This document shows, in pieces, positions 16,379 to 36,927 of a stretch of DNA of 64,000 nucleotides. The stretch lies in IMG/VR virus record IMGVR_UViG_3300006153_000012, positions 1-64,000 of that record; one strand, 5' to 3'. Numbering within the stretch: the first letter of the stretch is position 1; every line of letters starts with the position of its first letter. The notes under the pieces were generated by a model. It was not told the origin of the DNA and did no database searches. It saw only the letters and a list, made by a program, of their open reading frames with translations. This DNA is from a virus (lineage: Duplodnaviria > Caudoviricetes). The translations under genes were made by a program, and so were the position numbers.

Positions 16379-18757
16379 TTAATATTTTTTCATTTCCTGT
16401 AAAATCCTGTTATGTGCACGCATGCTTACTATATCCGAGAAATCTTCTGGGTTCTGTACGCCATGTACATGGATTCCGCCGACATCGACATTCATGTTTC
16501 GGTTCATGGTGCTGTTATTGTTGATTACCTCGACAGCCTTCTCCATGGCTTCTGCCGCATTATTCATGGCATATGCTGGCCTCATAAATGCGTCCCTGTT
16601 CGCACTGAAATATTCCTCGAATTTCTTTATCATTTGATATTCCCTGTCATCTGGTGTGAGTGGGTACAACGTTCTTCCATCCTTAGTGATGATGGTTCCA
16701 TCCACCAGTTTGACATTTCCATTCTCATAAGTCTTGAGCACTTCACCCTTATTTTCCATGATCTGTTCGGTCTGCTCTTCATTGAAAATAACGGTGCCTT
16801 TTGGAAGATCCCCCATGGTTGGCTCAGTGGTAAGTTCCGCCCTGCCGTCAGGGTACACGGTAAGTTCCGGCTGCCCGTACTCAGAACGCAGGGCATTCCT
16901 CTCGTCATTTGGAAGTCCTTTATACCCTCCCGTCCCTCTTGCGAACGCCTTTCCGACCGTGCCATCTGCATGCGCCGGGACTGTGCTGCCGGACACGGCG
17001 ACACTGACGGACGGCATCCCGGATGACTCCAGCGTCTCTGAGAGGGCACGCAGGGAGTTTGCCGCGGCCGCACACTGATCCTGTATGGAGTCCGCCATCT
17101 TCCTGACCATCTCGACAATCTTCTCACATATGGACTGGATGGATCTGTCGCCGTCAGTCGCGAAGTCACTGAAGGCTTTCAGCCACGGGTCTTCCAGCTT
17201 GGATGCCACCTCATCCCCGCCTGTCTGCATGATGTCTATGATGCTCCCGCCGTTGCCGCCCGGCTCGGAGCCGCCGCTGTTCCTGATGGGCTTGCTGCTC
17301 CCGGCTTTCTTCCCGGGGTCACTGCCGTCACCGCCGCCCACACCGATGATCTCCGCAATGCGCGCCTGCATTTCCTCCCATGCGGGAAGGTACTCCTCCG
17401 TTATCTTCCTGATCTGGTCATCGAAGGACGTGTTGCCGATGTCCAGTGCCTGGCTCAGGCTGTCCATCTGCCCCTGTATCGTTGTGACCGCATCGGATAT
17501 GGCTGACGCAAGGCCAATGAACCCTGTCCCTGCCGGTGCCGCGTCACCATCTGTCATGGCGTTCCCATCCCCCATGGACGCGGCAGTGCCTATGACGGCG
17601 GAGAAGTCTATCTGTCTGAATTCAGCACATTTCAGCGCAATGTCGCCGAAGGCGGATGCAGTGTCCCTCAGCTTCTGCACATACCCCTCATCCCCGATTT
17701 CCGGGAACTTTATGCTGCCAAGCTGGGTGACAACCTCATCAACCAGCTTCTTCAGCTTCTCCAGTTCCGTGCCCAGCGGCGCGATGCTCTCGGACATGCC
17801 AGACACGCCCTCCTGTATACCGCCCACTGCGGCGGATGCCTCCCCTGCGCTTGTGGCAAGTCCTGCCGCAGAGTCCTTCACGTCACTGACGCTGTTGCTA
17901 AGACCGTCCAGTGTGACTGCCCCAAGGTTCTCAAACGCACCCTTGGTTGACTCAAGGTAGCTGATGGAGTCCGCGCTGACCCCGGAAAGCCTTGACAGCT
18001 GCTCCAGGATGCCGTCATTGCCACGGCTCATGTCCGCAAGGATGCCCACATAGGCGGCCTTCAGCTTCTCAAATTCCTCCTGTGAGCCGCTTAAAAGCGC
18101 GTCCATGTTGATGCCGAGTTCAGAAAGTGCCGCTTCCATCTGTGCATTCTCAAGCAGGTCTGTCAGTTCCTCGAACTGTGACTTGTAGTCCTCCATGCCC
18201 TTTATCATGGCATCGTAGCGTTGCTCCTCTTTGGCGATGATGTCGTCATAATGTTTATTGACTTTCTCGGCTTCCTTATCCAGTAAGTCAATTTTGTCCT
18301 GACGCAGTTCCTTCTCCAGTTCCAGATAGTCTATTTCCTTCTCAATTTTGGAAATGTCAATTTCGAGTTTTATATCCTCCACTTCCTGCTTCGCGTCACG
18401 GATGCCTGACGTGTCAGCCTGGTATGACATCTGGCCGTCCTTGTAGACGAGATCCGTCCTCTGGTTCTGCATACGCTGCAGGTCGTATTCCGCTTTCTGC
18501 AGGTCAAGGGAACGTTTCCGTTCTTCGTTTGCGTCCTGCATCGCCTTGATCTCTTTTTCCTTGGCCTCTATCTGTTCCTCGATGCCCTCAATCTCGGTTT
18601 CATACTGCTCCTTCTTGGCTTCTATTTCCTCAAGCCTTGCGTCACGTTCCGCTTCAATGGCAGATATCGCGGCATCCTTTTCATCATTGATTGCGTCTAT
18701 GCGCTTGTCAATCTGCCTCGTGATGTAGCTGAAGGCGGACTCATAGAGGGATTTCAT
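16379..18757 (-). CDS. Tape measure protein, exon 3 (792 aa)
   Basis: Coiled-coil and Gly/Ala-rich TMP C-terminus; starts ATGAAATCC directly after the intron terminal G. Confidence 0.85.
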   Translation of the reverse strand: MKSLYESAFSYITRQIDKRIDAINDEKDAAISAIEAERDARLEEIEAKKEQYETEIEGIEEQIEAKEKEIKAMQDANEERKRSLDLQKAEYDLQRMQNQRTDLVYKDGQMSYQADTSGIRDAKQEVEDIKLEIDISKIEKEIDYLELEKELRQDKIDLLDKEAEKVNKHYDDIIAKEEQRYDAMIKGMEDYKSQFEELTDLLENAQMEAALSELGINMDALLSGSQEEFEKLKAAYVGILADMSRGNDGILEQLSRLSGVSADSISYLESTKGAFENLGAVTLDGLSNSVSDVKDSAAGLATSAGEASAAVGGIQEGVSGMSESIAPLGTELEKLKKLVDEVVTQLGSIKFPEIGDEGYVQKLRDTASAFGDIALKCAEFRQIDFSAVIGTAASMGDGNAMTDGDAAPAGTGFIGLASAISDAVTTIQGQMDSLSQALDIGNTSFDDQIRKITEEYLPAWEEMQARIAEIIGVGGGDGSDPGKKAGSSKPIRNSGGSEPGGNGGSIIDIMQTGGDEVASKLEDPWLKAFSDFATDGDRSIQSICEKIVEMVRKMADSIQDQCAAAANSLRALSETLESSGMPSVSVAVSGSTVPAHADGTVGKAFARGTGGYKGLPNDERNALRSEYGQPELTVYPDGRAELTTEPTMGDLPKGTVIFNEEQTEQIMENKGEVLKTYENGNVKLVDGTIITKDGRTLYPLTPDDREYQMIKKFEEYFSANRDAFMRPAYAMNNAAEAMEKAVEVINNNSTMNRNMNVDVGGIHVHGVQNPEDFSDIVSMRAHNRILQEMKKY

Positions 18758-18999
18758 CAAATCTGTTACTTTCACCATGACTGGCTACTGACTATGTGCA
18801 TACATAGCGGATAGTCATTTCTGGCTATCTTTCACATTTCATTTATTTGGGATTATTGTGTGAGTTCGGACTGGATCTTCACCCTCCCTGATAGGGTAGG
18901 GGAGTAACGGAACCTTATATGCTTTGTATCACAATATAAGGTATTACAGTCTCTACGGATTCTGGTTTTAGATAATACTAATTTAAAAATAAATATACC

Positions 19000-19161
19000 C
19001 AAAAAACACCTACCGAAGTAGATGTTTTTGGAACCATAACCTTGTTATGGTTTTCTACATTTGATTTGCCATTAATCTATGCCTCGCATAGACATGCTTT
19101 TGGTAAACTCTTTCGTTCACCTTAGTAATATTATACTACTACATCTCTGATAATATGTCAA
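19000..19161 (-). ncRNA. Putative small RNA downstream of the PemK-like gene
   Basis: TTGACA-N17-TAGTAT promoter, two hairpins, then a UUCG-loop hairpin with U-run. Confidence 0.45.
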
Positions 19162-19162
19162 T

Positions 19163-19903
19163 TCAAAATTTAAAACTCAGATTTTTATTTATAGCCTTTA
19201 TTATGTTATCAAAACATTTATCAGTAGCAATGCCCAAACATTTGCTGTCGATTCGCTTCCTGTCTATCGCCCGTATATGCATTACATTTACGAATCCATA
19301 TATCCCGTTGCTGTTTCCCTCTAACCTTAAAGGAATTTCATAAAAATCTAAATATTTATTCTTTATCGCGCCATCTTTTACTATCTCAATATAGTATTTT
19401 CGTTTTACATCATCCCATTTGACTTTTTTTTGGTGTGTTGTCACTGGGGCAATAATTGTGATATTGCCTTTAATGTTCCCTGTATTGTTTTGTAATATGA
19501 TTACTGGCCTACGTCCATTTTGCTCACTGCCAATATTGTCTCCTAAATGGGCATAAAAAATTTCTTTTTGAGCGACCGTATATTTTCTTGTGCTTAAGTT
19601 TATATTTCTTGTTCTATTTACCCAAGCCAAATAATCTATATTCTTCTGCATTTTTTCTAAATAGATTGCCTTATTAGTTGTTTTTACAAACATTTCTCTT
19701 GATAATTTTCTGAATTCCTTTATTAATCTATTCTCAAGATTTTTACACTCCCGGTCATCTTTCATAATAAAAAGAATTCTATTTATTATGTCTGATAATG
19801 TTGACTCGACCATTTCCTTTTCAGCAGAATTGTTCCTGTCAATAGAATTTGTAAATTTACGTAATATGCGGATTAAATCATCATATAATTTTTCAATATC
19901 CAT
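19163..19903 (-). CDS. PemK/MazF-family toxin with N-terminal helical extension
   Basis: IFYAHLGDNIGSEQNGRRPVIILQN...IAPVT; likely start MDIEK. Confidence 0.85.
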   Translation of the reverse strand: MDIEKLYDDLIRILRKFTNSIDRNNSAEKEMVESTLSDIINRILFIMKDDRECKNLENRLIKEFRKLSREMFVKTTNKAIYLEKMQKNIDYLAWVNRTRNINLSTRKYTVAQKEIFYAHLGDNIGSEQNGRRPVIILQNNTGNIKGNITIIAPVTTHQKKVKWDDVKRKYYIEIVKDGAIKNKYLDFYEIPLRLEGNSNGIYGFVNVMHIRAIDRKRIDSKCLGIATDKCFDNIIKAINKNLSFKF

Positions 19904-20108
19904 TAGTATTCCCCAATCATCAGCATTATAATATCCCATTATATACCAATAATTGACATAATACTACAAGAACATACATTCTAAAACCTTTATTATTATT
20001 ATTATATCTAAAACCAGTCTTTCCTCGGTCTTAACGTTCCCATACGCCTTTAACCGATATAGTTACTTTTCATTATGCTGCATTACTGCAGCAGATGGCA
20101 TGTAATCC

Positions 20109-23084
20109 ACCATCAAGGTACTGATGCTCATACTTCTCATATTCCTTCAGGTATTTCTCTTTGTCGCGGAAATACTTGAGATAGAGCCTGCGGAGTGCAT
20201 CCAGATATTGTTTTTCCGTGATTTTCCCACGGTCTTTCAGATCATCAAGGTCTTTTAGTTCCTTCTCGAATGACTCTAAATATGCATCTGCTGCTTCCTT
20301 GCCGGCTTTCCCTGCTGACTTTTTACCACCTCCGGCATTGGAGAAATCAACTTTAGGCTCATAATTGATCTTGCCTGCTGATTCTTTGATAAGCGCCTGT
20401 AACATTGCCGCCCGTGCAATCTTGAATCCTATGTCCAAAGGATCAATTGTGCCGCTTGCGACCTCCTGATAAATCTGCTCCAATTCAGTCAGATATTTAA
20501 TCACTTCACCCGTATAACCTGCATTCTCCGCAAGGGTTCTCAGGTTCGCAACCTCGCCATCTGTGTTCATAATCTGCATGTTGTACAGTTCCTTCTGGAA
20601 CGTGAGCATCGCAATCGCCTGTGACGCATTTTCAGTAGACACCATCTCATTTGCAAATGCGGCAATCTGTTCTTCTGTGGCTCTTGCAAGGTCAATCCCG
20701 GCTTCCTTCAATGCTTCCTTCAATGCCTCCGTGTTGCTTATCAAGGCTTCAAACGCCACCAATTCCTCATTGACAACACCCAAGTCTTCCAGTGCGGCTT
20801 TCAGTGTTTCAAAGTCCTCCGCGCCTGATAACGCCGCCTGTGTGATGGAAGCAGCAAGGGAGTCAAATGCAGTCTCTACATCCTGCTCCGTTGACTCAGA
20901 ATTGCGCAATACCCTGACAAAATCCTCATAGGAAGAGTAGTCTACATCAAGATTTAATCCTTCTGGGTCAGACATCTCGTCTAGTTTAGACTTAATTGCG
21001 TCACATGTTGATAGGATGTCTATGCTGTTTAGTGCGAACTCATCATCCGTGAAGATGGACTGGTATGCGGATTTCAGGGAATCGAATGCGGGTTTCAGCT
21101 GGGTGTTTAGCTGATCGATGGTGGAAGAGATGGATGAAATGGGGTTTTCAATGTTCGATGTTGAATCTTGAACTTCTTTAATCTTAGCAACAAGTTCATC
21201 CCAAGATAGAAGAGTACCCTCTGGAACTTCTACCTGTTCTGCCGCAATGTGCAGTTCTTCAAGTGTTAATTCTCCAACTTTGTCATCAAAATCATCTTGG
21301 AGTTTTTCTTTTACGTTGTTGATTAGTGGTTGGGTATCGTCTACTTTTGCTTGTAAATTAACAGAAATTGGGTGTTCTGAACCAAAATACTCTTGAACTT
21401 TAGCAATAGCTTCTAATAATTCACCAGAATTTAAACTCCCAGAATATATATTAGCTAAAGCTTCTGATACTTCTGAATCATTAATATTATTGATTGAGAA
21501 TAAGATATTACGTCTTAAATATTCACTAACAGCTTCCCAATCATTTTTATCAATGCCTTCTGGTAAACTTGACCAATCAAAATTGAAAAGTGTGTCTTGT
21601 ATTGCTTTTTGTAATCCACTATCTTCAATCTGATTGTAAGTAAACTCAGTCTGTAACCATGTATTTAAATATTGATTAATAGACGATGTTTCAGCTTCAA
21701 ACTGTTGCTCTGCATATTTTACATCGTCAGATGCCTTGTTAAATGCAGATACATAAGCATCTTTTATACCAGAAAGATTTGGTATATCACCACCATCTTC
21801 TAATTCCAGTTTATAACCAATGATTTGACCCATGCCATCTTTTAAATTTACTTGTTTTGCTGTTATACCTAATTTTTCAAGTAACTCTATATATTGACCA
21901 AGTTTTAATGCAACTGGATCTCCATTTGCATCTTTAGCATTTCCATTAATATCAAAAGCAGTATAAATCCCATATTTATTTATTTCTTCATATGCTCTTT
22001 GGATTTCATCTCTTGTCTTTTTAGCATCTTCTTTTTGTTTCTCTAAATCAGAAACATTATTAGAATAACCAGCAAATAAGTCTGGCATCTGTTTCATGAT
22101 TTCTTGATTTGCCAATACACGTTGTCTTTCAATTAAATCATCTAATGAACCAACGATAGTATCTACATCACCAGATAGATCAAGTATAGCAACACCATTT
22201 TCATCAAAATTCTTTGTTAATGAAGGATAAAGTGTTGATAACTGATTGCTTAACTCTAAAAATCTCTCATATTTTTCAGTAGAAAGATTTTTATTTTCAT
22301 TAGTTAGTAAATTAACTCCTTGGGCAAGTTCAGCATATTCTTTGGCAATTTCTTTAGTTTTTGATGAATTTTCACTAAATGTATAGTTTATTTCATCAAT
22401 TGCATTTTTGGCTTCTTCATAAGCTTCTTTTATTGCCTTAGCCGCTTTTTCTTGTTTAACCTTGTTTACTAACGCCGCACCACCACATAATGTTAATGCT
22501 GCTGTAATACTAGCAATAACAGGATGAGCCTGTGCAATAGTTAAAATACCAGTACCCAGTCCTTTTAGTGCAGTACCAGCACCTTTAATTTTAGCACCTA
22601 TACCTGCAAGTAAAGAAGCAGACTCTTTTTGGTTTGCTAGAGTAACACCAGCTTTTGCAGCAATTAAATTAGCTTCTGCCTGTGTTAATTTACCAGTAGC
22701 AACAAGTTCCTTTAATTTTGCGGCTGTCACAACATTGGTAGCCGTAGCCTCTGCCGTTTCAGAAGTGATAAGTCCAGTATTAATCAACAACGCTTCTGAT
22801 TGATCTTTATTTCTCTTTTTTGTTACGAGTATAGCATTAAGTTCAGCAGTAGTTAATTTGCCAGTAGAACCTAATAATTCTGCCTGTGATAAAATTGCCT
22901 GTTTCTGTGCAAGATTAAGTCCTTGTGTTGATAATACCAATTCTGCTTGCTTTGCGTTTAATCCTTTTAAAGCTGTTGCATATGCAGTTATATTTGTAGC
23001 ATTTAATTTCAAATTGCTGAGTTCGTTTATTTTTCTTCCAGCAATATAAACATCTTCCAAACTTTGTCTAATTGTTTTGAATAT
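20109..23084 (-). CDS. Tape measure protein, exon 2 (992 aa)
   Basis: Long helical Ala/Leu-rich ORF; no SD before its ATG at 23087; joins both neighbours in frame. Confidence 0.85.
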
Positions 23085-23165
23085 CATACTAATATATGTT
23101 ATACTTGTGGAGAGTATAACGTCCTCTTGTGGAGAGAGGATATTGATTCCCTTGTGGAGAGGGAA
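23071..23165 (-). repeat. 3' splice-site module copy 1 (restores TMP frame) with three CUCCACA-loop hairpins
   Basis: AGTATG|ATATTCAAAACAAT; loops at 23106, 23128 and 23153. Confidence 0.85.
23077..23105 (+). promoter_or_regulatory. Sigma-A-type promoter overlapping the splice-site module
   Basis: TTGAAT-N17-TATACT with extended TG. Confidence 0.65.
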
Positions 23166-23189
23166 ATTTATAATAGGAGATGTTTATTT

Positions 23190-23861
23190 ATGAAAAGAAA
23201 AATAATAAAAGTAACAATTTTGATTTTAATGTCTATTTCTATAACTGGATGCTCCAAGGCTAATTATCAAAAGGATGAATCATATGAAACAGATATTATT
23301 GGAACATATGAAATAAATGCCGAAGCTGATTCTGATAATAAAACTACTTATTACAAACAATATGTGTTAAATGACGATAATACATATAATTATGAAAGCA
23401 ATGTATTTGGCACAGATTCAAAGTCAAGCGGTAATTACACTATAAATAATGAAACAGAAAATATTCTCATAATTGATTTTGATATTATAAATAGTACATC
23501 TACCGATGAAGAATCAGTAAATATTAATTCTGCTAAACAATACAAAAAGGTTTATAAATATAAAAATATGCTTGGTGATATAATAGAAACGAAAGAGTTG
23601 CCAACATCCGAAATGTTTAATTACATAATACCGAATAAAACAGGAGGTGGCATGATATTTACTAAGGATGGTTATTATCATGCGTGTATTGATATTGATA
23701 ATTGCCAATGTGACTATGCAAAGGACACAAAATATATAAGAAAAGATAATATTATATATTTCAATATTAAAGGTTCTGGTACTGATAACTATTGGCAAAT
23801 TGCAGATTATGTAATCGATGATTATTTATTTACTCCAGAACTATATAAAGTGGAAGAGTAG
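23190..23861 (+). CDS. Lipoprotein (intron cargo)
   Basis: MKRKIIKVTILILMSISITGC signal peptide and lipobox; SD AGGAG. Confidence 0.8.
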   Translation: MKRKIIKVTILILMSISITGCSKANYQKDESYETDIIGTYEINAEADSDNKTTYYKQYVLNDDNTYNYESNVFGTDSKSSGNYTINNETENILIIDFDIINSTSTDEESVNINSAKQYKKVYKYKNMLGDIIETKELPTSEMFNYIIPNKTGGGMIFTKDGYYHACIDIDNCQCDYAKDTKYIRKDNIIYFNIKGSGTDNYWQIADYVIDDYLFTPELYKVEE

Positions 23862-24057
23862 TAGTATCATTTCATTCAATCATATAAATCACGTCCTTTC
23901 TAAATATTTTTATGAGTAAGATTACTCAATAGATATCACAATATCAATTATAATATCTATTCAATGATCTTGGCTTTGATGAAAATATGTTCTGGGTATC
24001 AAAAATATATAACTAATGATACAATAAATGTATCAATGTTTAGGAGGATATCATGCT

Positions 24058-25506
24058 ATGGCACGAAAGAAGAAAATTCTTAGTCCTACATATACAGAGT
24101 TAATTGTACCAACATATGATGCATTAAAGCAATTAGGAAATTCAGCTACTAATGAAGAGATTTATAATAAAATTATTGAAAATTTAAATTTGCCAGATGA
24201 TGTAATTCACGAACCGCATGGGAAAAATTTAGGCAGAGGTGAATTAGAATATCAACTTGCATGGGCAAGAACTTATTTAAAAAATTATGGTGTTATAAAA
24301 AGTATTAAAAGAGGTACATGGGAGATAGAACCATCTTTTATTGGAAATGTCCAATTAAATTATAGAGAAGTGATTGACTATACAGCGAATAAAAAGCAAC
24401 AATTAGATAATAATGTAGAAAATAATAGTGAAAATTTTCAAAATGAGGACGTTGATGATCTAACAGAGGATAACAAATATATTTCTGATGTTGAACAACC
24501 CGAAAATGCAAATTTATATATAAAAAGCCTGATTGACTCGTGGGAAACTAAAGATTTAAAAATACCTTTCTTTCAAAGAAAGTTTGTTTGGACTTTACGT
24601 CAAGCAAGTTTGTTTATTGAATCATTATTGTCTAATTTACCAATTCCAGCCCTTATGTTTTATAAAGATGCTGATGACTTTCAATATATAATAGATGGAC
24701 AACAACGAACAAAAAGTATTCTTTATTTTACAGGTGCAATAAAACTAGATGAAGTTGATGATGATAATAAAAAGTTTCTAAATTTTAGATTAATCGGATT
24801 ATCAGATGATAGTCCATATAAAAATAAAACATTTGCTGGACTTGATCCTTCTATAAGAAGAAAATTATTAAACCGCACATTGCCAATAACAACAGTCAAG
24901 GTAAATGATGATAGTGATTTGCCTAAAATCTTTGAAATTTTTCGTAGACTTAATACAGGAGGTACTCCTTTAACTAAGCAAGAAATACGAAATTGTATTT
25001 GTGCAGGTAATTTTAATGAATTTCTTATTGATTTAAATAAAAACAAAGAATGGCAATCATTTATTACCAGCGAGAACGATAGAAAAAGACAACGTGATGT
25101 TGAACTAATATTACGATTCTTTGCTTTATATGAAACATACAAACAATATAAAAGACCAATGGATGAATTTTTAACTTTGTATTTTGATGCACACAGAGAG
25201 ATTGGTGATATTGAAAAAGAAGAAAAGACTGCTCTTTTTAATGCTGTTGTTTCAGCTATATACAATAATTTAGGGAGAAGGCCCTTTCATATAAAAAATG
25301 GTTTAAATTCTGGTGTATGCGATTCTGTCATGGTTGCTTTTGCAAATAATATAAATAATATTCCGCTGGATATAAAAGATCGATTCTTTGCATTGACACA
25401 TAACGATGAATTTTATAAATATTGTGGCAAAAATATTAACGACAATGAATCTGTACAATGTAGGATACAAATTGCAACAGATTATCTTTTTGGTGATTCA
25501 GAATAA
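24058..25506 (+). CDS. Mrr N-terminal wHTH fused to DUF262 (GmrS/ParB-like) domain
   Basis: PTYTELIVP...LEYQLAWARTYLK...RGTWEI; IPFFQRKFVW, IIDGQQR, IFRRLNTGGTPL. Confidence 0.8.
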   Translation: MARKKKILSPTYTELIVPTYDALKQLGNSATNEEIYNKIIENLNLPDDVIHEPHGKNLGRGELEYQLAWARTYLKNYGVIKSIKRGTWEIEPSFIGNVQLNYREVIDYTANKKQQLDNNVENNSENFQNEDVDDLTEDNKYISDVEQPENANLYIKSLIDSWETKDLKIPFFQRKFVWTLRQASLFIESLLSNLPIPALMFYKDADDFQYIIDGQQRTKSILYFTGAIKLDEVDDDNKKFLNFRLIGLSDDSPYKNKTFAGLDPSIRRKLLNRTLPITTVKVNDDSDLPKIFEIFRRLNTGGTPLTKQEIRNCICAGNFNEFLIDLNKNKEWQSFITSENDRKRQRDVELILRFFALYETYKQYKRPMDEFLTLYFDAHREIGDIEKEEKTALFNAVVSAIYNNLGRRPFHIKNGLNSGVCDSVMVAFANNINNIPLDIKDRFFALTHNDEFYKYCGKNINDNESVQCRIQIATDYLFGDSE

Positions 25507-25576
25507 ATTATTAAAGGCTCATCTATTCAGATGGGTCTTTTTTTAATACTCAAAACATTTAGTTAAATCATTTGTT

Positions 25577-25693
25577 ATTGTTTTGAATATCATACTAATT
25601 TGTGCTATACTTGTGGAGAGCATAACGTCCTCTTGTGGAGAGTAGTGTTTTGCGTCATGTGGAGTGACGCTGTATCTAATTGTGGAGATTAGA
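25577..25693 (-). repeat. 3' splice-site module copy 2 with four CUCCACA-loop hairpins
   Basis: AGTATG|ATATTCAAAACAAT at 25591/25590; loops at 25612, 25634, 25658 and 25681. Confidence 0.85.
25583..25611 (+). promoter_or_regulatory. Sigma-A-type promoter overlapping module copy 2
   Basis: TTGAAT-N17-TATACT. Confidence 0.6.
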
Positions 25694-25756
25694 CATTGTG
25701 TTTTGTGGATATATTTGGTATAATTTTACTAAAAATATATAATCAAGGGGATACAT

Positions 25757-26419
25757 ATGATTTTCAAAAAGACATTACAAATTGTTTTGGTGTTCTTATT
25801 AAGTATATTATTATGCTCATGTTCTTCTAATAATAATTTAAATGATGATTTTATCAGTTTTCATGAACAACAATTAGACCAAAAAGTTTATAAAACATCT
25901 CAGGATCAAAATTTTGTAATTAGCAATTTAGACAAGGAAAAAGTTCCTGAACATTCAAAAGTTGTTTTAATGGTATTTCTTGGGAATGAAACCAAATACC
26001 AGGACGAAGTATATAAATGGTTACAATTATCAATAGATGAAAGAAAAGCTGATTTAAGGGAATGTGCAGAGTTAGTGATTAAATATGCTCAAGATAATAA
26101 CTGGAAAAATGATTATTATCTTTATGTCAATTTGACAGATATTTATGGTGTTTGTAGTATAATATATGATTATGAAAAAGATGAAATTTGGATACCAAAT
26201 TGCGAAAATACTTTTATTGAAATGTATGAAAAATTTAATACATTCTACGAAAAAGATTTAGAAGAAACACAAGATGGAATTGATTTTCTTGTAGATAATA
26301 ATTTAGCATACATCAAACATAATCAAGTGGAATATAGAAATATTTTTAGCTATACAGTATATATAGATAACGAAGGAAATTTTAAAAGTTATGGCGAAGA
26401 TAATTCAATAAAATATTAA
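25757..26419 (+). CDS. Lipoprotein (intron cargo)
   Basis: Signal peptide ending LLCSC; SD AGGGG. Confidence 0.8.
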   Translation: MIFKKTLQIVLVFLLSILLCSCSSNNNLNDDFISFHEQQLDQKVYKTSQDQNFVISNLDKEKVPEHSKVVLMVFLGNETKYQDEVYKWLQLSIDERKADLRECAELVIKYAQDNNWKNDYYLYVNLTDIYGVCSIIYDYEKDEIWIPNCENTFIEMYEKFNTFYEKDLEETQDGIDFLVDNNLAYIKHNQVEYRNIFSYTVYIDNEGNFKSYGEDNSIKY

Positions 26420-26752
26420 ACAATCATAAAAATCACATCCTTTCAATTTTTTAGAGCGATAAGACTACTCTATGAATTGCACTAGAGATTAATTCAGTTT
26501 ATACGGTAGTCTTATTTGGTTATTAAATTGACTAAGTGGTAAGATGTTATATATTGCTTTATAATATATGGTAGAAAATAGAATGAATCAAAACTTGATT
26601 GAATATTTATTGATTATTAAGGAGTGGCATTGTAATAAGTGCAGTTCGGATTTTTAGGTAATTAATATTACATCCTTTCTATGAATAGAAGGGTAGAGAA
26701 TATGAAAAACAGGATACTTGATACAATATCCTGTTTAATAGAAGTTATTTAA

Positions 26753-27394
26753 TTAATTATTTTTACTATTTAAAGAATTTATAATCTGTTTCATCATTAA
26801 ATATTGCTTATTTTTTTCACATAAATTCCAAATGAATTGATATTTTTCTCTGCCAAATTGAAATCTTAGATCCAAGTCATATATAGCTGTATCTAAATCA
26901 TTAAAATCAATTATCATACATTGTAAAAATGTATTTATTGTTTTTTCTACGATTTTAATTTTTTCTCTATCCCATTCCTTATATTCTTTAATAATATTAT
27001 TATACAATATATGACGATTAAACGTATATTCTATTAAGTCATAAAATTTATCAATATTCATTTCTCGTAAAAAAACAGTTTGCACTTCAATAATTTTTAT
27101 ATTATTAAAACTTTTTAATATATTTTTCCAAAAAGTGATTTCGTTATCAGAAGTTATTTCATCTAATTCATCAATAAAATTTTCTAAATTTACTGATGTA
27201 TATATTTTTTTAAATGCGTATAAAAAATCATAAAATAAATCTAATGTTTTATAATCTAACATAATTTTCTCATTCTCAATTATATCATTGAAATTGTGAG
27301 ACACATTCTTTAAGAGAAATAACTTATCAATAACATCGTCAACTTTATCCTTTTGGGCATCTGATGTTATATATTTTAATAATTTGTTTTCCAT
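26753..27394 (-). CDS. Hypothetical helical protein (gene 3 of nitrilase operon)
   Basis: 213 aa, overlaps the upstream gene, very AT-rich. Confidence 0.7.
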   Translation of the reverse strand: MENKLLKYITSDAQKDKVDDVIDKLFLLKNVSHNFNDIIENEKIMLDYKTLDLFYDFLYAFKKIYTSVNLENFIDELDEITSDNEITFWKNILKSFNNIKIIEVQTVFLREMNIDKFYDLIEYTFNRHILYNNIIKEYKEWDREKIKIVEKTINTFLQCMIIDFNDLDTAIYDLDLRFQFGREKYQFIWNLCEKNKQYLMMKQIINSLNSKNN

Positions 27395-28230
27395 GGTTTA
27401 CCTCCAATCCAATTACTGTCATCTGAGAAATGTGCAATATTTTGATAGTAACTTTTTTCTTTATCTAGCAAATATGTCAATTTATTCAAATTATAATTTG
27501 CACTCGCAGAATTTAAATGAGGCTTTTTAAGTTTATGATTATCTTGATTGGATTTACTTAATATATATTCAATTAAATATTCTAAAACTTCATTTACTTT
27601 TCCTTCATTGTAATTTAAAGTCAGGTCATCAAAGTCAATATTCTTAATCATGAAAAATGCATAAAGGTTTTTACCTTTAGGAGATAAAGAATATAATACA
27701 GTGTCATTTACTTGACGTGTCATAACTAAATCATAAATATGTGACGATGGAGCAAAGAAATCTACATTAGAATCAAAAAGTTCCTTTAATTCTGAATTTG
27801 AAGCTTCAGTATGGTCATAAAGGTATTTATAAAAATTTAGTTTAGACGGATTGCTAAAGTATTTTTTACATTCATTTACTTTGATAATATAATTTTCATT
27901 AATATCCAATACTCTAATAACTAATTTAAAAAAGTGTAATATATTGTATTGCTTTAATGCAGACATCAAATTTGGTATTTCTGATTCTCTACAAAAGGAT
28001 ATAATTATGTTATATTGTCTTCTGGATTCATTTGAAATATCCTTTTTTAATTGTTTAATTTTCTCAAGTTCTTCATAATTTCCAGCATCATTCTTTATGT
28101 TATTTATAAGAGAAGATAAAATATTTTCATAAGTAGATTCTATATGCATATCGAAATTAGAATCATTAAAATTAGAAATATTATTCTCACTGTTTTTTAT
28201 ATAGCCTAATAATTCATCAATTTGATTCAT
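27376..28230 (-). CDS. Hypothetical protein with possible winged-helix (gene 2 of nitrilase operon)
   Basis: LYDHTEASNSELKELF...VLYSLSPKGKNLY resembles a wHTH. Confidence 0.65.
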   Translation of the reverse strand: MNQIDELLGYIKNSENNISNFNDSNFDMHIESTYENILSSLINNIKNDAGNYEELEKIKQLKKDISNESRRQYNIIISFCRESEIPNLMSALKQYNILHFFKLVIRVLDINENYIIKVNECKKYFSNPSKLNFYKYLYDHTEASNSELKELFDSNVDFFAPSSHIYDLVMTRQVNDTVLYSLSPKGKNLYAFFMIKNIDFDDLTLNYNEGKVNEVLEYLIEYILSKSNQDNHKLKKPHLNSASANYNLNKLTYLLDKEKSYYQNIAHFSDDSNWIGGKPWKTNY

Positions 28231-28231
28231 A

Positions 28232-29779
28232 TCAACACCTCTTCATTTCATAAACATTTAAACTAACAATATTATTTTCAAAAAACAATTCTTCTAAATC
28301 AATATTAAAAATTCTGCCATTGCAAAAAGAATCACAATTTCTACATTCTTCATTAAATGTATAAAAAATTTTCCTATGGGAACGAGTTGTATTATCTTTT
28401 GAGGGTGTAATAATAAAACCAATTTTATTTTTATTTTCTATCTTTTCATTTAATGAATCTATATTTTCTTCTAAATGTTTTAAAGAAGAACATGTATTGC
28501 ACATAATAGTAGTGCAATGATATCGTTCTGAAAGGGTAGCAGCATTATTAGTAAGATCGTTTGAAGGGTTACATGCTGGCAATATTATAAAGTCACCTTG
28601 TAATATTCTTGTAAGATTCATATAGCAATCATCATCAATATCTTTGCATATATAAGTTAATATTCTTCCAAAATTATTAATATCTATTACATGTATATTG
28701 CAATCATGAATTAAGTGTTCACTAAAAATTATTTTTTCCTTAAAATCATGCGAAAAAAGAAAACTATCTAGCAAACATTTCTGTTCGACATTTGAACAGT
28801 TTTTTATAATTGTTTTAAAGTCATCTTCGGAATATTTTAAATCAAAAGGTATTTTCTTATAATATTGAAAAATTTCCATGCTTTCATAAAATACATGGCA
28901 TATATTATTTCTATTCTCCCAAACACTTCCACAAAAAACAAATTTAATGTCTTGTTCATGTAATTTAGAAATAATCGAATTAATTATCTTTTCTGTCATA
29001 AGCATTTCTGGAAATATAAGGAAGTCTATATTATCCGATAAATTTTCAATAAACTGATTACATCTTTCAATAATTTTCCCTTCAATATTATCTTTCATAT
29101 TGTTTATATTAAATTTCATATTTTCAGTATATGTAATGTTAAAAATGTCATGCAAATTAGTATTCAAAATCGGGCATATAGCAATTCTTAGTTCTTTCTT
29201 ATTGTAAATGCGATTTATAAAATCTTCATATTCAATTAACTCATGAATTGTTATATTATAATCATCATCAAAAATTATATAACTTTTCAATTTACTATTA
29301 ACCGATAAACTATCATATTTTTTTCTTTCTCTTAAATAATTATTTTTATATTCTTCTTTATATATACTGTTGAAATCTTCTCGATAATTAGATAATAAAA
29401 CGGGATAAATTTTTATCTTTTTATTATATATTTCGTTAAGGCTTTTATATGTTTTAAATTGATCATCTAAATAAGTTGAATTTCTATAATTATAAATTTC
29501 ACATGAATCAATTGATATCAATAAACAATAATATTCTGTAGTGGATAAAGGTTTATAATTTAATGATATTAATATTGCCTGTTTTAAATATTTAAACGCA
29601 TAACAAGGACTGAATTGTTTATCTTCTAAATATTTATTTAAAATTTTATTGAAAATGTCCATGGTAGATTTGTCGTATACATTATTTATATCAAAATTTT
29701 TATCCTCAATTATATGTGCATAGCATATTGCCATGATATCATATATGTTTCTTGCAGACTCAAGTTCTTTGGTAAACAT
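28232..29779 (-). CDS. Protein with C-terminal carbon-nitrogen hydrolase (nitrilase) domain
   Basis: FLIFPEML (E), YYKKIP (K), TYICKD (C) triad; likely start MFTKE after GGGGG. Confidence 0.7.
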   Translation of the reverse strand: MFTKELESARNIYDIMAICYAHIIEDKNFDINNVYDKSTMDIFNKILNKYLEDKQFSPCYAFKYLKQAILISLNYKPLSTTEYYCLLISIDSCEIYNYRNSTYLDDQFKTYKSLNEIYNKKIKIYPVLLSNYREDFNSIYKEEYKNNYLRERKKYDSLSVNSKLKSYIIFDDDYNITIHELIEYEDFINRIYNKKELRIAICPILNTNLHDIFNITYTENMKFNINNMKDNIEGKIIERCNQFIENLSDNIDFLIFPEMLMTEKIINSIISKLHEQDIKFVFCGSVWENRNNICHVFYESMEIFQYYKKIPFDLKYSEDDFKTIIKNCSNVEQKCLLDSFLFSHDFKEKIIFSEHLIHDCNIHVIDINNFGRILTYICKDIDDDCYMNLTRILQGDFIILPACNPSNDLTNNAATLSERYHCTTIMCNTCSSLKHLEENIDSLNEKIENKNKIGFIITPSKDNTTRSHRKIFYTFNEECRNCDSFCNGRIFNIDLEELFFENNIVSLNVYEMKRC

Positions 29780-29903
29780 AATATCCCCCTTCATTCTATA
29801 TTTATCTATTAAAATTATAATATACAAATTCAATTATTGGAAGAAACATATGTTTGAATATGGTAAAATTTGGAATTTAATTGCAACTATGCACACTTTG
29901 ATA

Positions 29904-29915
29904 GAACTTATGTTC
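29904..29915. promoter_or_regulatory. LexA (SOS) box
   Basis: Perfect GAAC-TTAT-GTTC between divergent genes; second variant AAACATATGTTT at 29844. Confidence 0.65.
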
Positions 29916-30000
29916 TGCTTTGAGATATAGTTTATATCAATAATTGAGATATGTCAATACTGTATAGGCAGTATTGTAACAATAAGGGCGGTATTTAAAC

Positions 30001-30294
30001 ATGATTGATTGGAGTAACTTTGAAAATAAATTACAGGAACGTGGCAGGAGAGCAGAACTATCACGTCAAACAGGCATATCTACCGGCAACATACGAGACT
30101 GGTTCAATCCTGATAAACCAGCACAGCCAAGTGCGGATGCTCTTGTTAAGATATCAAAAGCCCTTGATTGCTCCGTAGACTACCTGCTTGGGCTTACTGA
30201 TGTTGAAAAGAGAGCAACAAATAAATCAAACATCATCCCAATTCCAATAGTGAAGCAAAAGGCTGCCGCTGGACTTGGGATACAAACCAACTGA
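30001..30294 (+). CDS. XRE/CI-type HTH repressor, truncated before the S24 peptidase domain
   Basis: HTH (ELSRQTGISTGNIRDW...SVDYLLG) followed by IPIV..KAAAG then stop. Confidence 0.7.
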   Translation: MIDWSNFENKLQERGRRAELSRQTGISTGNIRDWFNPDKPAQPSADALVKISKALDCSVDYLLGLTDVEKRATNKSNIIPIPIVKQKAAAGLGIQTN

Positions 30295-30300
30295 ACTGTT

Positions 30301-30349
30301 AATTGTTTTGAATATCATACTTATAAATTTTGCAACTTGTGGAGAATTG
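30301..30349 (-). repeat. 3' splice-site module copy 3 with one CUCCACA hairpin
   Basis: AGTATG|ATATTCAAAACAAT at 30316/30315; loop at 30338. Confidence 0.8.
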
Positions 30350-30549
30350 AATGTAGATTTTTATTTGAATCAGTAAATATTATTAACTCACTTATCAACC
30401 TTACAAAAACAATATTATTTTCGATGGATTTTCCCGTAGAAATATGGTATACTAATTCTTGCATATTGTTGGAGTGTACCGCACTTCATTATAACCACTC
30501 ATTACTCACCAAAGTTTGGGTGGTTATTTTAAAAGAAGGGAACAGTGCT

Positions 30550-30759
30550 ATGGATAGCAAAATGATTGTTGACTCAATAAATATTTTGTGTAAAATAAAT
30601 AATATTTCAATATCTCAATTAGAAAAAGATTTAAACTTTAAGCCGTCATTAATTGACAGTTGGAACAATTCATTACCTACTCTTGATGAAATTGTGGATA
30701 TAGCTAATTATTTTGAAGTATCATTGGATGATTTAATAAAAAATAAAATTAAAAAATGA
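30550..30759 (+). CDS. Small XRE-family HTH protein
   Basis: ISISQLEKDLNF...IVDIANYFEVSLDDL; SD AAGGG. Confidence 0.75.
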   Translation: MDSKMIVDSINILCKINNISISQLEKDLNFKPSLIDSWNNSLPTLDEIVDIANYFEVSLDDLIKNKIKK

Positions 30760-30810
30760 AAGAGAGGGTTGCCCCTCTCTGTTCTATCCATATTTGCATT
30801 ATGAAATTAT

Positions 30811-31803
30811 TTATGCTGTCCTAATCATATTTCTCCAGTAATCAAGCCTACCGCGCACATTCTCAGGACTGCTTGTTCCTGACTGTACATATTGCTTATA
30901 ATCGTTATTTGTTTCGTATTCATTAAGAAACTTATTGACCAATTCAACCAACTTTGAGAATGATTTCTTGTCCTTAATAATCCGGTATCCGCTATATAAT
31001 ACCATTGGAATTGATGTGACAGGTATTTTAATCTCATCAAATGCTTCGTCAAATTTATCCATTGATTCTTTTAACACGTCAACTTTTGATAGACTTTCAT
31101 CAGCGTAATCTTGCACGAAAACATCAATGTCTTTTGCTCTGAATGATGTAAAATCTCTCTCCTGATTGCTGCAAATAAGCATTAATGTTTGAATTATTAG
31201 ATCTCTATCTGTACCGTTTTTCCTTTGTGTAGGTGTAACTAACTTATCCATAAAGGGATGGTTTGCCAAAGAATATACAGCATCGCTGAATGCATCGGAC
31301 TCATGTACAATACGAAGCAATTTCCCGTTGAGGGGCTTGGAAGTGTTCTGCCGCCTGAACATTTCCTTTACCTCATTATCGGTATAATCAGACAATGTAC
31401 AGAACTCTAAGCTGCAGGCAAGGAGGGTTGATTGCACTTCTTCATCAAGTTTTTTGAATTTTTTGCCTGCTAATTCATATTTGTTTTCTACAATCTCACC
31501 TTCTTCTTTGCTCCGGATGATAATATTGGGCGTGTCCTTGCTAAGGGCAAACTCATTATTTATATAACTGATACATGTTGAAGTCCTTTGGGAACCATCA
31601 AGTGTGTATGAAGTGCCATCTTCATCAACAACATAAATAGGATTCACAGGAAAGCCTGAAAGCAGACTGTGTATCAGCAAAGACTTCATTTTGGGACTCC
31701 ATTGTCCAATAGGACGCTGAAGTTTATGTGAAAAAGAAATATTCCCCTTTTTGTGTTGATTGGTAATCCACTGTAAAGTACGTTCTTTACTGGATGTCTT
31801 CAT
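30811..31803 (-). CDS. DUF262 (ParB/Srx-like) domain protein
   Basis: LQRPIGQW, SLL.GFP, LDGSQR, MFRRQN. Confidence 0.75.
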   Translation of the reverse strand: MKTSSKERTLQWITNQHKKGNISFSHKLQRPIGQWSPKMKSLLIHSLLSGFPVNPIYVVDEDGTSYTLDGSQRTSTCISYINNEFALSKDTPNIIIRSKEEGEIVENKYELAGKKFKKLDEEVQSTLLACSLEFCTLSDYTDNEVKEMFRRQNTSKPLNGKLLRIVHESDAFSDAVYSLANHPFMDKLVTPTQRKNGTDRDLIIQTLMLICSNQERDFTSFRAKDIDVFVQDYADESLSKVDVLKESMDKFDEAFDEIKIPVTSIPMVLYSGYRIIKDKKSFSKLVELVNKFLNEYETNNDYKQYVQSGTSSPENVRGRLDYWRNMIRTA

Positions 31804-32006
31804 TCTGCTACCTCCGAAAATATTTTGAATTTTGATATTTTCAGAGTAGCACATTTATAAATTATTGTAAATAATTTTTTGTGAAAAATTGTGTGAAATA
31901 AGATTATTTTAATTAATATATCTTTATATTTGACAATATATGTCAGTATGTTACAATATCAATTACAGCACTCAGACTTGATTCTGTAACCACCTCCAAA
32001 AAATAA

Positions 32007-32071
32007 CTCGCCTCCACGCGAGATAGGCTTGCTCCACACAAGCCACCGACATAGTATGATGTTCAAAACAA
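32007..32071 (+). repeat. Inverted copy of the 3' splice-site module with two CUCCAC(A) hairpins
   Basis: AGTATG|ATGTTCAAAACAA at 32058/32059; loops at 32012 and 32032; promoter-like TTGACA...TACAAT at 31930-31957. Confidence 0.75.
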
Positions 32072-32093
32072 CAATGATTATCGGAGGTGGCTC

Positions 32094-32312
32094 ATGGGAA
32101 ATATAATTAAAAGTGCTGTTGAGTGTGAATTTGCGTATGGGATGGTATGCGTATTAGCCAGTTTTATATTCTTTTACGCCGCCATTCGATTTGTAGTACC
32201 TTACATATATAAGATTGTATGTAAATTATGCAATACATTGGTGAAGTACAAAGATATTCACACAAAAGCCAATGTTAAGGATGTCTCGTTTGAGACAGAA
32301 TTACATCGGTAA
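32094..32312 (+). CDS. Small membrane protein
   Basis: SD GGAGGTGG, one hydrophobic helix. Confidence 0.6.
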   Translation: MGNIIKSAVECEFAYGMVCVLASFIFFYAAIRFVVPYIYKIVCKLCNTLVKYKDIHTKANVKDVSFETELHR

Positions 32313-33043
32313 TTTTGGACTACTGGATTCCACTCTGGTAGTCCTTTGGCTTGTCTTGTTTATATGATTCTCCGTTTCTTCCCTACGGCTAGGAGAAATC
32401 CTTACATTATTCTATTCCTTCTATAATAAGTATAGTTGCTATTAAGAAATAGAAGAGTAGCATCACTCTTTTGGTTCATGCTTATATTATTAGGCTCCAC
32501 CCTAATAATATACAATCTATTTCGGTTCTATCTTCTTATCAACTCCGATAGTGAGAGTTCCAACAAATGTGTAAGACGTAGGAGATAAGATTCCTAACAG
32601 CAATTACTAACCGCTACACTCGGCAAAGTCTGGATCACTCCTTGCAGCATTAGGAATTTCACCTAATGCCACCTGCCCTGATGCTCTCTGAGATTAGCAC
32701 TCATCTAGTGAGATTTCCATCCTTAAAAGGATTTCTGTACATTCTGTACGCTGTCATCTGCTCGTTATTGTCAAATATCACATTGTAACTATAGCCGTTT
32801 GTGTTGCCACTTAGGAGAGTAGTGATATTTGTATACCAACTTTCAAGACCATTAATTGCTAAATGGTGTATCCATAATGCAGAGGGATACCATATCTGCT
32901 ATACTTATAAAAAGTATACGGTGGTTAATTCCACACGAGATTCAATTGTGTATTTCACAAAGGATAATATTTAAAACTTATTCTTTGAATAAGAACCAAT
33001 ATTACAACAGGCATATTCGATATGAGGGATTACGTTTTACCCT
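32310..33043 (-). ncRNA. Large structured RNA, putative ribozyme core of the giant intron
   Basis: ~730 nt with no credible ORF and many stems (e.g. GCAUUAGG/CCUAAUGC, 12-bp stem with GUGGAG loop), starting at the 5' splice site. Confidence 0.7.
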
Positions 33044-34978
33044 ACCTGTGTTTTTAAACCCAGCAAATAATCCTGCTCCGAGTCCGATAGATCCAAACAA
33101 CCCAAGTTTGGAGGTTAGTGTGTCGATGATGTTCATAACTGATGTTAATCCGTCAACGACTGTTTTCATGTCACTTCTTTTAAAGAGGTTTTGGGCTACT
33201 GATGTGGATGTTTCGGATAGGCGGTTGAGTTTGAAATCGAGACTATCCATAATTACTGACATTTCTCTATCTGCTGATCCAGCACTATTTTCCATCACTT
33301 CAATAGCAGAGCGGATTTGATCAAAATTTTTGATCATTGCCGCGCCTACTTGAGCACGATTTTTCCCAAATAATTTGTTAAGTAATTCATTTTGTGACTT
33401 TGCATCAATTTCGTCCCAAATGTCAGAAATATCACCAAGGTAATCAACTAAATCTCTGTATTCTGTTTGGGAAGAATCAGTAAATAAAGAAATTCCTTGA
33501 CCATTATTACTTGCAACTTTTGTCAAATCAATGACCTCGCCCTTAATATTAGCAAGATCTTCACTAAATTCTTCAGTTTCCTCGTCATAAGACCTAACAC
33601 GCAAAGCGATTGAACGGATAGCATTACCTACCTGTGATGCATCTTGAACAATTTCTTGTGCTCCAGTAAAAAGTGCAATATTCGACTCGATTGTTCCTCC
33701 AACGGCGGCCATTGCAGCAGAAGATTTTCTTAAACCTTCGGCTATTTCTGCGTTAGAAGTTCCAAATTTGTTACCTACGTCATTGATTTTACTAAGTATT
33801 CCATCTAATACATCATCAACTTCTACATCATAAGCACGCATCATAGATACTAAAGAAGTAGTGGCTTCGTCAACATCCATGCCTGGTGAGATGCTTGCAA
33901 ATTGGGAACTGAATTTTGCCATTTTTGTAGCTGCCTCACCGCTAGAAAATCCGAGCCTTGACCAGGCGGAACTTTGATTAATTATCTCCTCAGTAGTAAC
34001 CCCCATCTGTTTTGCTACTTTATTAGAAGAATAATAAAAATCTTCCAGCTCACTATTTGTCATAGTAGTAGTCTTTTTCAGATCCACCAAAGCAGTATCC
34101 AGTGCCTTAACAGTTCCTAATCCACCCTTAACAGACTGGATCGCTTTCATTACCAAGAAAGTTGAACTCGTCCAATAGCTAAATGAACTCATTCCTTCTC
34201 TCAAAGTCTGAAAGAATGTTTTTCCTAGTTTTCCAGCATTACGGGCTTGTACAACTGCATTATTAAACTCCTGATTTAACTTTGCAATTTCTTCTCTTGT
34301 AAGCTTTGCACCTTGTGTAGTTTCATTAAATATTCTCATAAATTCTCCGGAATATTTAACAGCTTTGCCATTTTTACTCATAAAATCATTAACTTGATTG
34401 TGTAAAGAAGAAATAGCAGAGTCCTTAGCCATTTCAGCATTCATTTTACGAACATCATTAGTAATTTTCTGATATTCAGTATCAAGCTTTTTGCTGGACT
34501 CGATTAATCTTTTTTGTGTTGCTTCTGACTTGTTATTTGCATAAGCTTCTGATGCTTGTGTTAATTTTGTCAATGCATCACTCAATGCAGCGGTGTTAAT
34601 CCTTGCCTGACCTTCACTGTCAGTCCATTGTCTCGTCCTTGCAATCAGAGTTTCAACTTTGGATTCATATCCGCCTGTCTCCATTGAAAGTTGAATTTTA
34701 TCGGCTCTTGATGTTGCGTTATTTACATCTCTGATCACTTGGTTTATCGAAGATAAAATCTTGCTTGTATCAATATTTAATTTTCCTGAGCTTGCTTGAT
34801 TTAAAGCAGTTTGTATCTGTTTGGCAAAATTTTGTAATTCCTGCTTACTTGCTGATGTGTCTAATACAGTTTTTAGATTTATATTTTTACTTTCAAGCTG
34901 TCCTTTTAGCTTATTTAGATCTGTTATTGCATTTGATGTATCTAATCGTGTAATTAATTGGACAATAAATTCATCCAT
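33044..34978 (-). CDS. Tape measure protein, exon 1 (645 aa)
   Basis: TP901-type TMP domain (LDTALVDLKKTT...WSRLG...AKFSS); SD AAAGGAG; ends KNTG. Confidence 0.9.
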
Positions 34979-35040
34979 ATATTTCAGGACTCCTTTCAAA
35001 TAAAAAACTCCCATGCTCTATCATGAGAGTTTATGATTCT

Positions 35041-35481: not shown

Positions 35482-35577
35482 AAATCACATCCATTCTTAT
35501 AATTTCTGTATACAAATATTTTATTTTGTTATATAATATTTTCATCTGTGGCAGCATAGGTAAAGAAAGGAACTGCT

Positions 35578-35667
35578 GTGATAGAGACTGCTTGCTCAAT
35601 CATCTCTGTGTGCATAGCAACTTTAGGATTGTTATACACGATTTACAGAGACAATAAAAAGAAATAA
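35578..35667 (+). CDS. Small hydrophobic peptide, putative type I toxin
   Basis: MIETACSIISVCIATLGLLYTIYRDNKKK; SD AAAGG; GTG start. Confidence 0.5.
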   Translation: MIETACSIISVCIATLGLLYTIYRDNKKK

Positions 35668-36197: not shown

Positions 36198-36202
36198 AAT
36201 TT

Positions 36203-36894: not shown

Positions 36895-36927
36895 TTAAAT
36901 TCACTTCCCAGTTTAAAATTTGATTAT

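Follow-up and report, generated by a model that had tools for sequence, protein, structure and literature searches.

A promoter-like motif in the predicted 3' acceptor module of a cargo-carrying, group I-like intron of a phage tape-measure gene

The stretch of 64,000 nucleotides (nt) analyzed here, hereafter the window, covers positions 1 to 64,000 of the IMG/VR record IMGVR_UViG_3300006153_000012 and belongs to an uncultured phage (Duplodnaviria; Caudoviricetes) that is known from metagenome alone. Its tape-measure gene, encoded on the minus strand, is interrupted by an intron-like element carrying accessory (cargo) genes. A promoter-like motif, TTGAAT-N17-TATACT, occurs on the plus strand at the 3' boundary of this element (23077-23105; copy 1) and a second time inside it (25583-25611; copy 2). 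The motif probably results from reading, on the plus strand, the 3' acceptor module of a group I-like tape-measure intron that is 9,959 nt long and carries cargo. The explanation as a whole, in which this acceptor module is combined with a lineage-specific promoter role of copy 1 and an origin of copy 2 as a by-product, is favored with moderate confidence. The features of the interrupted gene, in the order in which its strand is read, are the following:

33045-35014, minus strand: tape-measure exon 1 with a PhageMin_Tail domain (last base 33044; the intron starts at 33043)
23085-33043, minus strand: intron-like element of 9,959 nt inside the tape-measure gene
33018-33007, minus strand: internal guide GAAUAU-GCCUGU, about 30 nt into the insert, for the pairings P10 and P1
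32483-32512, minus strand: core hairpin (12-bp stem) with the loop GUGGAG (32500-32495), which complements the CUCCAC loops
25604-25694, minus strand: four hairpins with CUCCACA loops (copy 2), folding cleanly on the minus strand alone
23098-23165, minus strand: three hairpins with 7-nt CUCCACA loops (copy 1; plus-strand loops 23106-12, 23128-34, and 23153-59)
23074-23090, minus strand: conserved box (copy 1), reading AGUAUG followed directly by AUAUUCAAAAC
20073-23084, minus strand: tape-measure exon 2, followed by a second, 1.3-kb intron (18779-20072)
16379-18778, minus strand: open reading frame (ORF) representing the third tape-measure piece

The interrupted tape-measure gene and its splice-site logic

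The tape-measure exons appear to form a single interrupted gene, since the ORF is uninterrupted at the intron position in the related loci L078, L079, and L084 and is broken in more than 20 relatives at the same point, directly behind ...KN(V/I/T)G. The 3' boundary falls within the conserved 17-nt box, of which AGUAUG constitutes the last 6 nt of the intron (the G at 23085 being the final one) and AUAUUCAAAAC the first 11 nt of exon 2 (from 23084 downward); about 50 IMG/VR loci have the identical 17-mer at the boundary of tape-measure exon 2. The ATG at 23085-23087, called as the start of ORF 20073-23087, corresponds to the last three bases of the intron and not to a start codon. The internal guide is complementary to both exons: GCCUGU pairs with ACAGGU, the six bases that end exon 1 (P1, the splice-site pair being U.G), and GAAUAU with AUAUUC, the six bases that open exon 2 (P10). 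Guide and exon covary in relatives, with GUCGGU opposite GCCGAC and GUUGGU opposite GCCAAC, and P10 extends there to up to 11 bp (GUUUUGAAUAU against AUAUUCAAAAC), with P10 guides that abut P1 and with a compensatory change between L080 and L083. P1 was predicted unaided by RNAalifold from 15 sequences, with compensatory changes at its covarying pairs (GC in 11 and AU in 3; CG in 10, AU in 1, and UA in 1). Among these sequences, the pair at the splice site was U.G in 12, C.A in 2, and U-A in 1, and the final base was a G in every intron examined. Group I introns are defined by a P1 guide pairing with a U.G at the splice site (PMC3984707; PMC4227781). With P1, P10, and a terminal G, the element follows the group I pattern at its splice sites.

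Each box is trailed by one to five hairpins with the plus-strand loop (T)GTGGAG, which reads CUCCACA on the tape-measure strand, and a second loop class, GTTTGAR, occurs in relatives. The three hairpins of copy 1 fold with z = -5.4 on the minus strand. As about 40 different stem sequences bear identical loops, the hairpin structure has probably been selected. The hairpins would function as RNA of the tape-measure strand, as indicated by the polarity of the wobble pairs in their stems (10 A.C pairs, equivalent to G.U on the tape-measure strand, versus 3 G.T pairs) and by the copy-2 array, whose four hairpins form cleanly on the minus strand (z = -4.75, versus z = -0.88 on the plus strand); hairpin 2 of this array has mismatched arms and is located at a recombination joint. 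The array comprised one hairpin in 35, two in 18, three in 13, four in eight, and five in one of 75 modules. In L197 and L172, which contain orthologues of copy 1, hairpins were lost by deletion between the repeated TGTGGAG loops (from three to two to one), and such deletions leave chimeric or armless hairpins.

A complement to these loops is present in the intron core, namely the GUGGAG loop of the core hairpin, homologues of which have compensated stems in L075, L110, and L130. Loop class and core motif vary together: GUUUGA was found in the core of eight of eight GUUUGA-class introns and of none of five GUGGAG-class introns (relatedness uncorrected), and L081 combines CCCAACA loops with UGUUGG at the corresponding core position. 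The most economical reading of these correspondences is that the hairpins may bring the remote 3' splice site to the core by docking onto its GUGGAG loop. A function of the hairpins in the 5' leader of the cargo mRNA (N/boxB-like or as a CsrA site) was considered too and dropped, because the promoter of relatives lies past the hairpins, the wobble pairs favor the other strand, and the loops covary with the core. The core further contains an R-like string, UCAGAGAG, and a conserved helix, CUUAUC/GAUAAG (32540-32600 on the minus strand of the window, and in homologues), which encloses a small hairpin together with the variable receptor site. Bases just past the helix pair with the hairpin loop, and this pairing covaries across homologues (CUAUC/GAUAG in the window, GUUCC/GGAAC in L132, GUUAUC/GAUAAC in L123, and UUGUUACC/GGUAACAA in L081). 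This region appears to be pseudoknot-like and could not be mapped onto a group I core.

The promoter-like motif and its distribution

On the plus strand, the acceptor modules of copies 1 and 2 and the genes behind them are arranged as follows:

23077-23082, plus strand: '-35' TTGAAT of copy 1, equal to exon-2 positions +3 to +8 (codons Ile-Phe-Lys) and to the target of the intron guide (P10)
23100-23105, plus strand: '-10' TATACT of copy 1, equal to one arm of docking hairpin 1 (23098-23120)
23190-23861, plus strand: cargo gene 1, putative lipoprotein with lipobox ITGC; its ribosome-binding site (RBS) lies 10 nt past hairpin 3
25580-25611, plus strand: box copy 2 with TTGAAT-N17-TGcTATACT, the copy-1-type half of a chimeric module
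25696-25724, plus strand: TTGTGT-N17-TGGTATAAT, likely the native promoter of gene 25757-26419, conserved in L163 and L167
25757-26419, plus strand: cargo gene for putative lipoprotein 2, with a signal peptide and a cysteine at the N-terminus

An initial annotation of this DNA had reported the motif TTGAAT-N17-TATACT directly upstream of two lipoprotein genes, had taken it for 3' splice-site DNA that doubles as a cargo promoter, and had noted that the -10 is lost in a third copy at 30301. The motif was retrieved exactly at 23077-23105 and 25583-25611 on the plus strand, and no third site was found in the window when one mismatch was allowed. The distance to the ORFs behind it is 85 nt for ORF 23190-23861 and 146 nt for ORF 25757-26419, both of which begin with a signal peptide and a cysteine. 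At both sites, the fit to a sigma-70 promoter consists of TTGAAT (4/6), a spacer of 17 nt, TATACT (5/6), and a TG at -15/-14, i.e., two bases before the -10, which makes it an extended -10 (TG of copy 1 at 23097-23098). The 17-nt spacer of copy 1 spans the splice site and the last 15 nt of the intron, and the premise of a 3' splice site holds as sequence logic. Of the 17-nt box, GTTTTGAAYATCATACT, the record contains four copies, three on the plus strand at 23074, 25580, and 30305, and one inverted at 32053-32069. The -10 is indeed missing from the third copy (30305-30321 on the plus strand), which has TGCAAC at this position, and the inverted copy on the minus strand has GCTTGT there.

The motif is no commoner than chance allows in the AT-rich DNA of the window. 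At least two pattern matches at one mismatch occurred in 41 of 100 window shuffles, the 10.7-kb region contained 88 sigma-70-like sites versus 75.5 +/- 7.7 in shuffles, and the two motif sites attained a middling score of 9/12 among such sites. Moreover, both are located within one duplicated, near-identical stretch of about 55 nt, i.e., paralogous copies, so that they count as one event. A blastn search of positions 22900-23300 against a phage collection gave no match.

Among the plus-strand sites between 22900 and 23190, copy 1 ranks first as a promoter candidate. The TATAAT at 23169-74 shares bases with the RBS of gene 23190, and no other plausible sigma-70 promoter is present there; as this RBS begins only 10 nt past hairpin 3, no room is left for another one. 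Because gene 23190 is situated directly behind the hairpins and no other promoter is available, copy 1 may well act as the promoter of this lipoprotein gene, a lineage-specific co-option that is proposed tentatively. The orthologues of copy 1 in L168, L197, and L172b have kept TTGAAT-17-TGnTATA(C/T)T before the same gene, and L172b has done so (TTGAAT-17-TGtTATATT) with the hairpin arms deleted.

Copy 2 differs from copy 1 in its history. The copy-1 type extends from its box through hairpin 1 to the first arm of hairpin 2; from the second arm on, the sequence corresponds to that of L163 and L167. These two loci contain copy-2 orthologues of the ancestral type, with ACCAAT at the -10 position next to the box, and hence no -10, and with a conserved promoter after the hairpins, TTGTRT-17-TGGTATAAT, the equivalent of which lies at 25696-25724 in the window. 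Since copy 2 is chimeric and is followed by this conserved promoter, the second apparent promoter is probably a by-product of recombination.

The distribution of the motif was surveyed in 78 distinct modules from IMG/VR and metagenomes, in which a -10 was considered valid when it matched at least 5/6 positions, A2 and T6 among them, at a distance of 16-18 nt from TTGAAY. Such a -10 was present at the box in 14 of the 78 modules, which represent 6 of about 40 stem families. In a second stem family, TATAAT/ATTATA (L157, L158, L161, L188, and L196), a perfect -10 occurs at the same spacing. About half of the modules without a -10 at the box contain a separate promoter after the hairpins, for instance TTGAAT- or TTGAAA-17-TATAAT in L022 and L031 and TTGTCG-17-TGATACAAT in L006. 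Judged by their sequences, these post-hairpin promoters appear to be separate from the box site and better than it. A promoter at the box is not a general feature of the modules. Thus, the role of acceptor DNA as cargo promoter, as initially annotated, may be retained for copy 1, the only credible site and one kept in three orthologues, and is given up for copy 2, which has its own conserved promoter downstream. The new detail is that the acceptor end of the intron would overlap a promoter-like site, and would do so in a lineage-specific way.

Weighing of the explanations

Sequence anatomy, covariation, strand polarity, and distribution among relatives are established, whereas splicing of the element, docking of the hairpins, and promoter activity of copy 1 are inferred. 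According to this explanation, the '-35' would be held by exon-2 coding (Ile-Phe-Lys) and by guide pairing, for reasons apart from transcription. The '-10' would be the stem arm of the first hairpin, and the CUCCACA loops would dock onto the GUGGAG loop of the core; in this lineage, the arm of the first hairpin would by chance have the sequence TGnTATACT at a distance of exactly 17 nt from TTGAAT. At the second site, the first approximately 55 nt of a copy-1-type module would have recombined onto a module with its own downstream promoter.

Several observations weigh against this explanation. At E-values of up to 10, neither the intron nor about 14 relatives matched the Rfam group I model, which is why the element is called group I-like, and Rfam revealed no group I, group II, or other ribozyme in positions 19000-37000, 32050-33100, and 18700-20130 of the window, in six related loci, in L083, or in eight more loci. 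The same model also misses the second tape-measure intron, in which R- and S-like strings are present. P3-P9, P7, and J8/7 could not be assigned by eye in the core, and a MAFFT alignment of 15 cores followed by RNAalifold recovered P1 and P2 and nothing else. An exact GUGGAG is missing within 1.45 kb in two of five GUGGAG-class cores; L123, the core of which lacks it, has UGUGGG at the receptor site, as judged by eye. The conservation of copy 1 is weak evidence, because the orthologues are close relatives. Finally, a downstream promoter was found in 2 of the 14 modules with a -10 at the box versus 35 of the 64 without (p = 0.007, relatedness uncorrected), and the former have a shorter gap between hairpins and start codon (p = 0.005), both in favor of a promoter role of copy 1, but the association with the downstream promoter is no longer significant when the modules are collapsed to first-arm families (1/6 versus 18/34; p = 0.19). 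This association is not relied on, because it is not significant per stem family, and with it, and with a -10 in only 14 of 78 modules, the promoter as a general property of these modules falls.

A pure coincidence, with neither site active and the cargo expressed from phage-specific promoters or from weak sites with a -10 only, is an unlikely explanation, yet one to be taken seriously. Promoter-like matches are equally frequent in shuffled sequence, other constraints account for both hexamers, and the test at lineage level is not significant. It leaves gene 23190 without any other plausible sigma-70 promoter, given the overlap of the TATAAT at 23169-74 with the RBS, and it does not account for L172b, in which TTGAAT-17-TGtTATATT persists despite the deletion of the hairpin arms; at the level of modules, the association also points the opposite way.

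The initial annotation went further and proposed that the dual-purpose acceptor drives cargo expression in the lysogen, while an antisense transcript with GUGGAG loops blocks splicing of the tape-measure transcript until the lytic phase. The extended -10 and the 17-nt spacing at both sites fit this model, two stem families (TATACT and TATAAT) yield a correctly spaced -10, and a leader starting at about 23112 would hold hairpins 2 and 3, with loops identical to the receptor loop of the core. Lysogeny is plausible, given the two tyrosine recombinases encoded in the record and the classification of two relatives as proviruses. Against this, 64 of the 78 modules have no -10 at the box, about half have a post-hairpin promoter, the transcripts of which would not be antisense to the hairpins, and copy 2 arose by recombination and has a promoter of its own. 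In addition, folding of the plus strand narrows the loops to 5 nt and yields no copy-2 array. The full model is thus quite improbable. Of its parts, the claim that transcripts begin antisense to the docking hairpins applies to copy 1 insofar as a plus-strand start near 23112 would cover hairpins 2 and 3. Such an RNA is not conserved, since the cargo transcript would start after the hairpins in most relatives; a cis-antisense arrangement was not found as a conserved feature among them, most of their cargo promoters being located past the hairpins. Control of tape-measure splicing by an antisense RNA is unsupported, as the arrangement is absent from most relatives and the plus-strand loops close to 5 nt. 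A narrower variant, in which the acceptor has been tuned as a promoter in some lineages and a cargo mRNA leader that is antisense to it over its full length and bears copies of the receptor loop of the core titrates the docking hairpins, thereby coupling cargo expression to repression of splicing, is very improbable too.

The least probable explanation is that the box and hairpins are sites of DNA recombination (att or integron attC) at cassette boundaries and not RNA elements. The four box copies do mark cassette boundaries, copy 3 truncating a CI-like gene; internal copies retain a few exon-2-like codons of other tape-measure lineages, and the number of hairpins shifts by deletion between repeated loops. 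However, no integrase or resolvase domain was found within 23085-33043, the guide pairs and covaries with both exons, the loops covary with a core motif on the same strand, and the wobble pairs indicate an RNA of tape-measure polarity. Homologous recombination between acceptor modules explains the boundaries better. The two tyrosine recombinases of the record (6431-7015 and 59503-60081) are encoded outside the element, and an integron-like or att site was rejected on the basis of the missing recombinase and the guide covariation.

Cargo and relation to known systems

The 9,959-nt intron contains genes for two GmrSD_N/DUF262 proteins, two putative lipoproteins, and helix-turn-helix (HTH) regulators, as well as three unknown genes on the minus strand and one membrane ORF of 72 amino acids. 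Besides the features given above, the following were found:

24028-25506, plus strand: cargo gene 2, nuclease-like, with Mrr_N and GmrSD_N (DUF262) domains
30305-30350, minus strand: box copy 3 with one weak CUCCACA hairpin and no -10, behind the truncated CI-like ORF 30001-30294
32007-32069, plus strand: inverted module of acceptor-type hairpins and box, between the strong plus-strand promoter 31930-31957 and ORF 32094-32312
18779-20072, minus strand: second tape-measure intron, with the guide GGAUUACAU-GCCAUC counted from the first intron base

ORF 30001-30294 encodes a CI-like repressor (an HTH and the first residues of the peptidase domain) that is cut off at box copy 3. The bases before the internal boxes (30284-30304 and 25560-25579) encode the exon-2-like peptides IFKTINSSV and IFKTITNDL, which agree with exon 2 in other lineages of the tape-measure gene (flanks of L154, L155, L157, and L190). 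Because such peptides precede the internal boxes, the internal modules look like former terminal splice sites. The inverted module is part of a plus-strand unit (31930-32344) composed of TTGACA-16-TGnTACAAT, two CUCCAC-loop hairpins, the box, an RBS, the 72-amino-acid membrane ORF, and a terminator (32317-32344). This module recurs together with the small ORF in L075, L110/L125, L040/L124, L130, L153, L159, L166, and L195, and L012/L128 contain it with the other loop class, in agreement with the core motif of that phage. The cargo at the same intron site varies among relatives. In L011 (7107-11400), it consists of a zinc-ribbon protein, an NYN/LabA-like protein (by eye), and a 345-amino-acid protein that resembles the DUF262 protein of the window. 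In L080 (11966-12970), the intron measures only 1 kb and contains a single zinc-ribbon ORF on the opposite strand; upstream of the tail genes of this locus (7765-7831), a skipping-rope RNA (RF02924) scored 39.2 bits, above the gathering score. As to the second tape-measure intron, its guide pairs with the exon sequence GAUGGU and with the next exon, AUGAAAUCC. It contains the R- and S-like strings GUAGAGACUG and AAGAUCCAGUCC, and its cargo is a 258-amino-acid ORF with a MazF-like segment (phrog_1936).

Phage morons are promoter-gene-terminator units inside late operons. The cargo described here resembles them in that independently promoted accessory genes (lipoproteins and nuclease-like defense genes) are found among tail genes, and differs in being located inside the intron of an essential gene, with, in one lineage, a promoter that would overlap the splice acceptor. 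The sunY (nrdD) intron of phage T4 reportedly has, from work by Michel and co-workers in 1992, a 3' terminal domain far from the core, behind an ORF, with the long-range pairings P9.0 and P10. Compared with that arrangement, the distance here is ten times greater, and recruitment apparently takes place via repeated loop-loop contacts, the class of which varies between phages.

Group I introns occur in the tape-measure genes of prophages of the Bacillus cereus group (Tourasse and Kolsto 2008, PMC2504315). These are likewise of the self-splicing type with guide-defined splice sites (P1 and P10), but they are small, have standard group I folds, and encode a homing endonuclease at most (PMC2504315), whereas the element of the window measures about 10 kb, carries approximately ten genes on both strands as well as docking-hairpin arrays, and has no Rfam match. 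In the IStrons CdISt1 and BcISt1 (Tourasse et al. 2014, PMC4227781), the ribozyme likewise occupies the 5' end, and a large insert of foreign DNA directly precedes the 3' splice site. Their insert is an IS200/IS605 transposon on the same strand (PMC4227781); in contrast, the insert here consists of swappable accessory or defense-like cassettes with their own promoters and without a transposase. A literature search retrieved no paper on tape-measure introns with docking-hairpin arrays or defense cargo.

For genome annotation, these results mean that gene callers misplace the start of the second tape-measure ORF at the ATG at 23087. If the leader of some lineages did titrate the docking hairpins, it would represent a switch at RNA level between carrying and building phage. 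If copy 1 works as a promoter, one stretch of 29 bp would serve at once as coding sequence, ribozyme substrate (P10), arm of a docking hairpin, and promoter. It would then be a compact case of overlapping constraints and indicate a route by which intron cargo can gain expression. The larger point is that an intron of 10 kb may find its 3' splice site by means of co-evolving loop-loop contacts.

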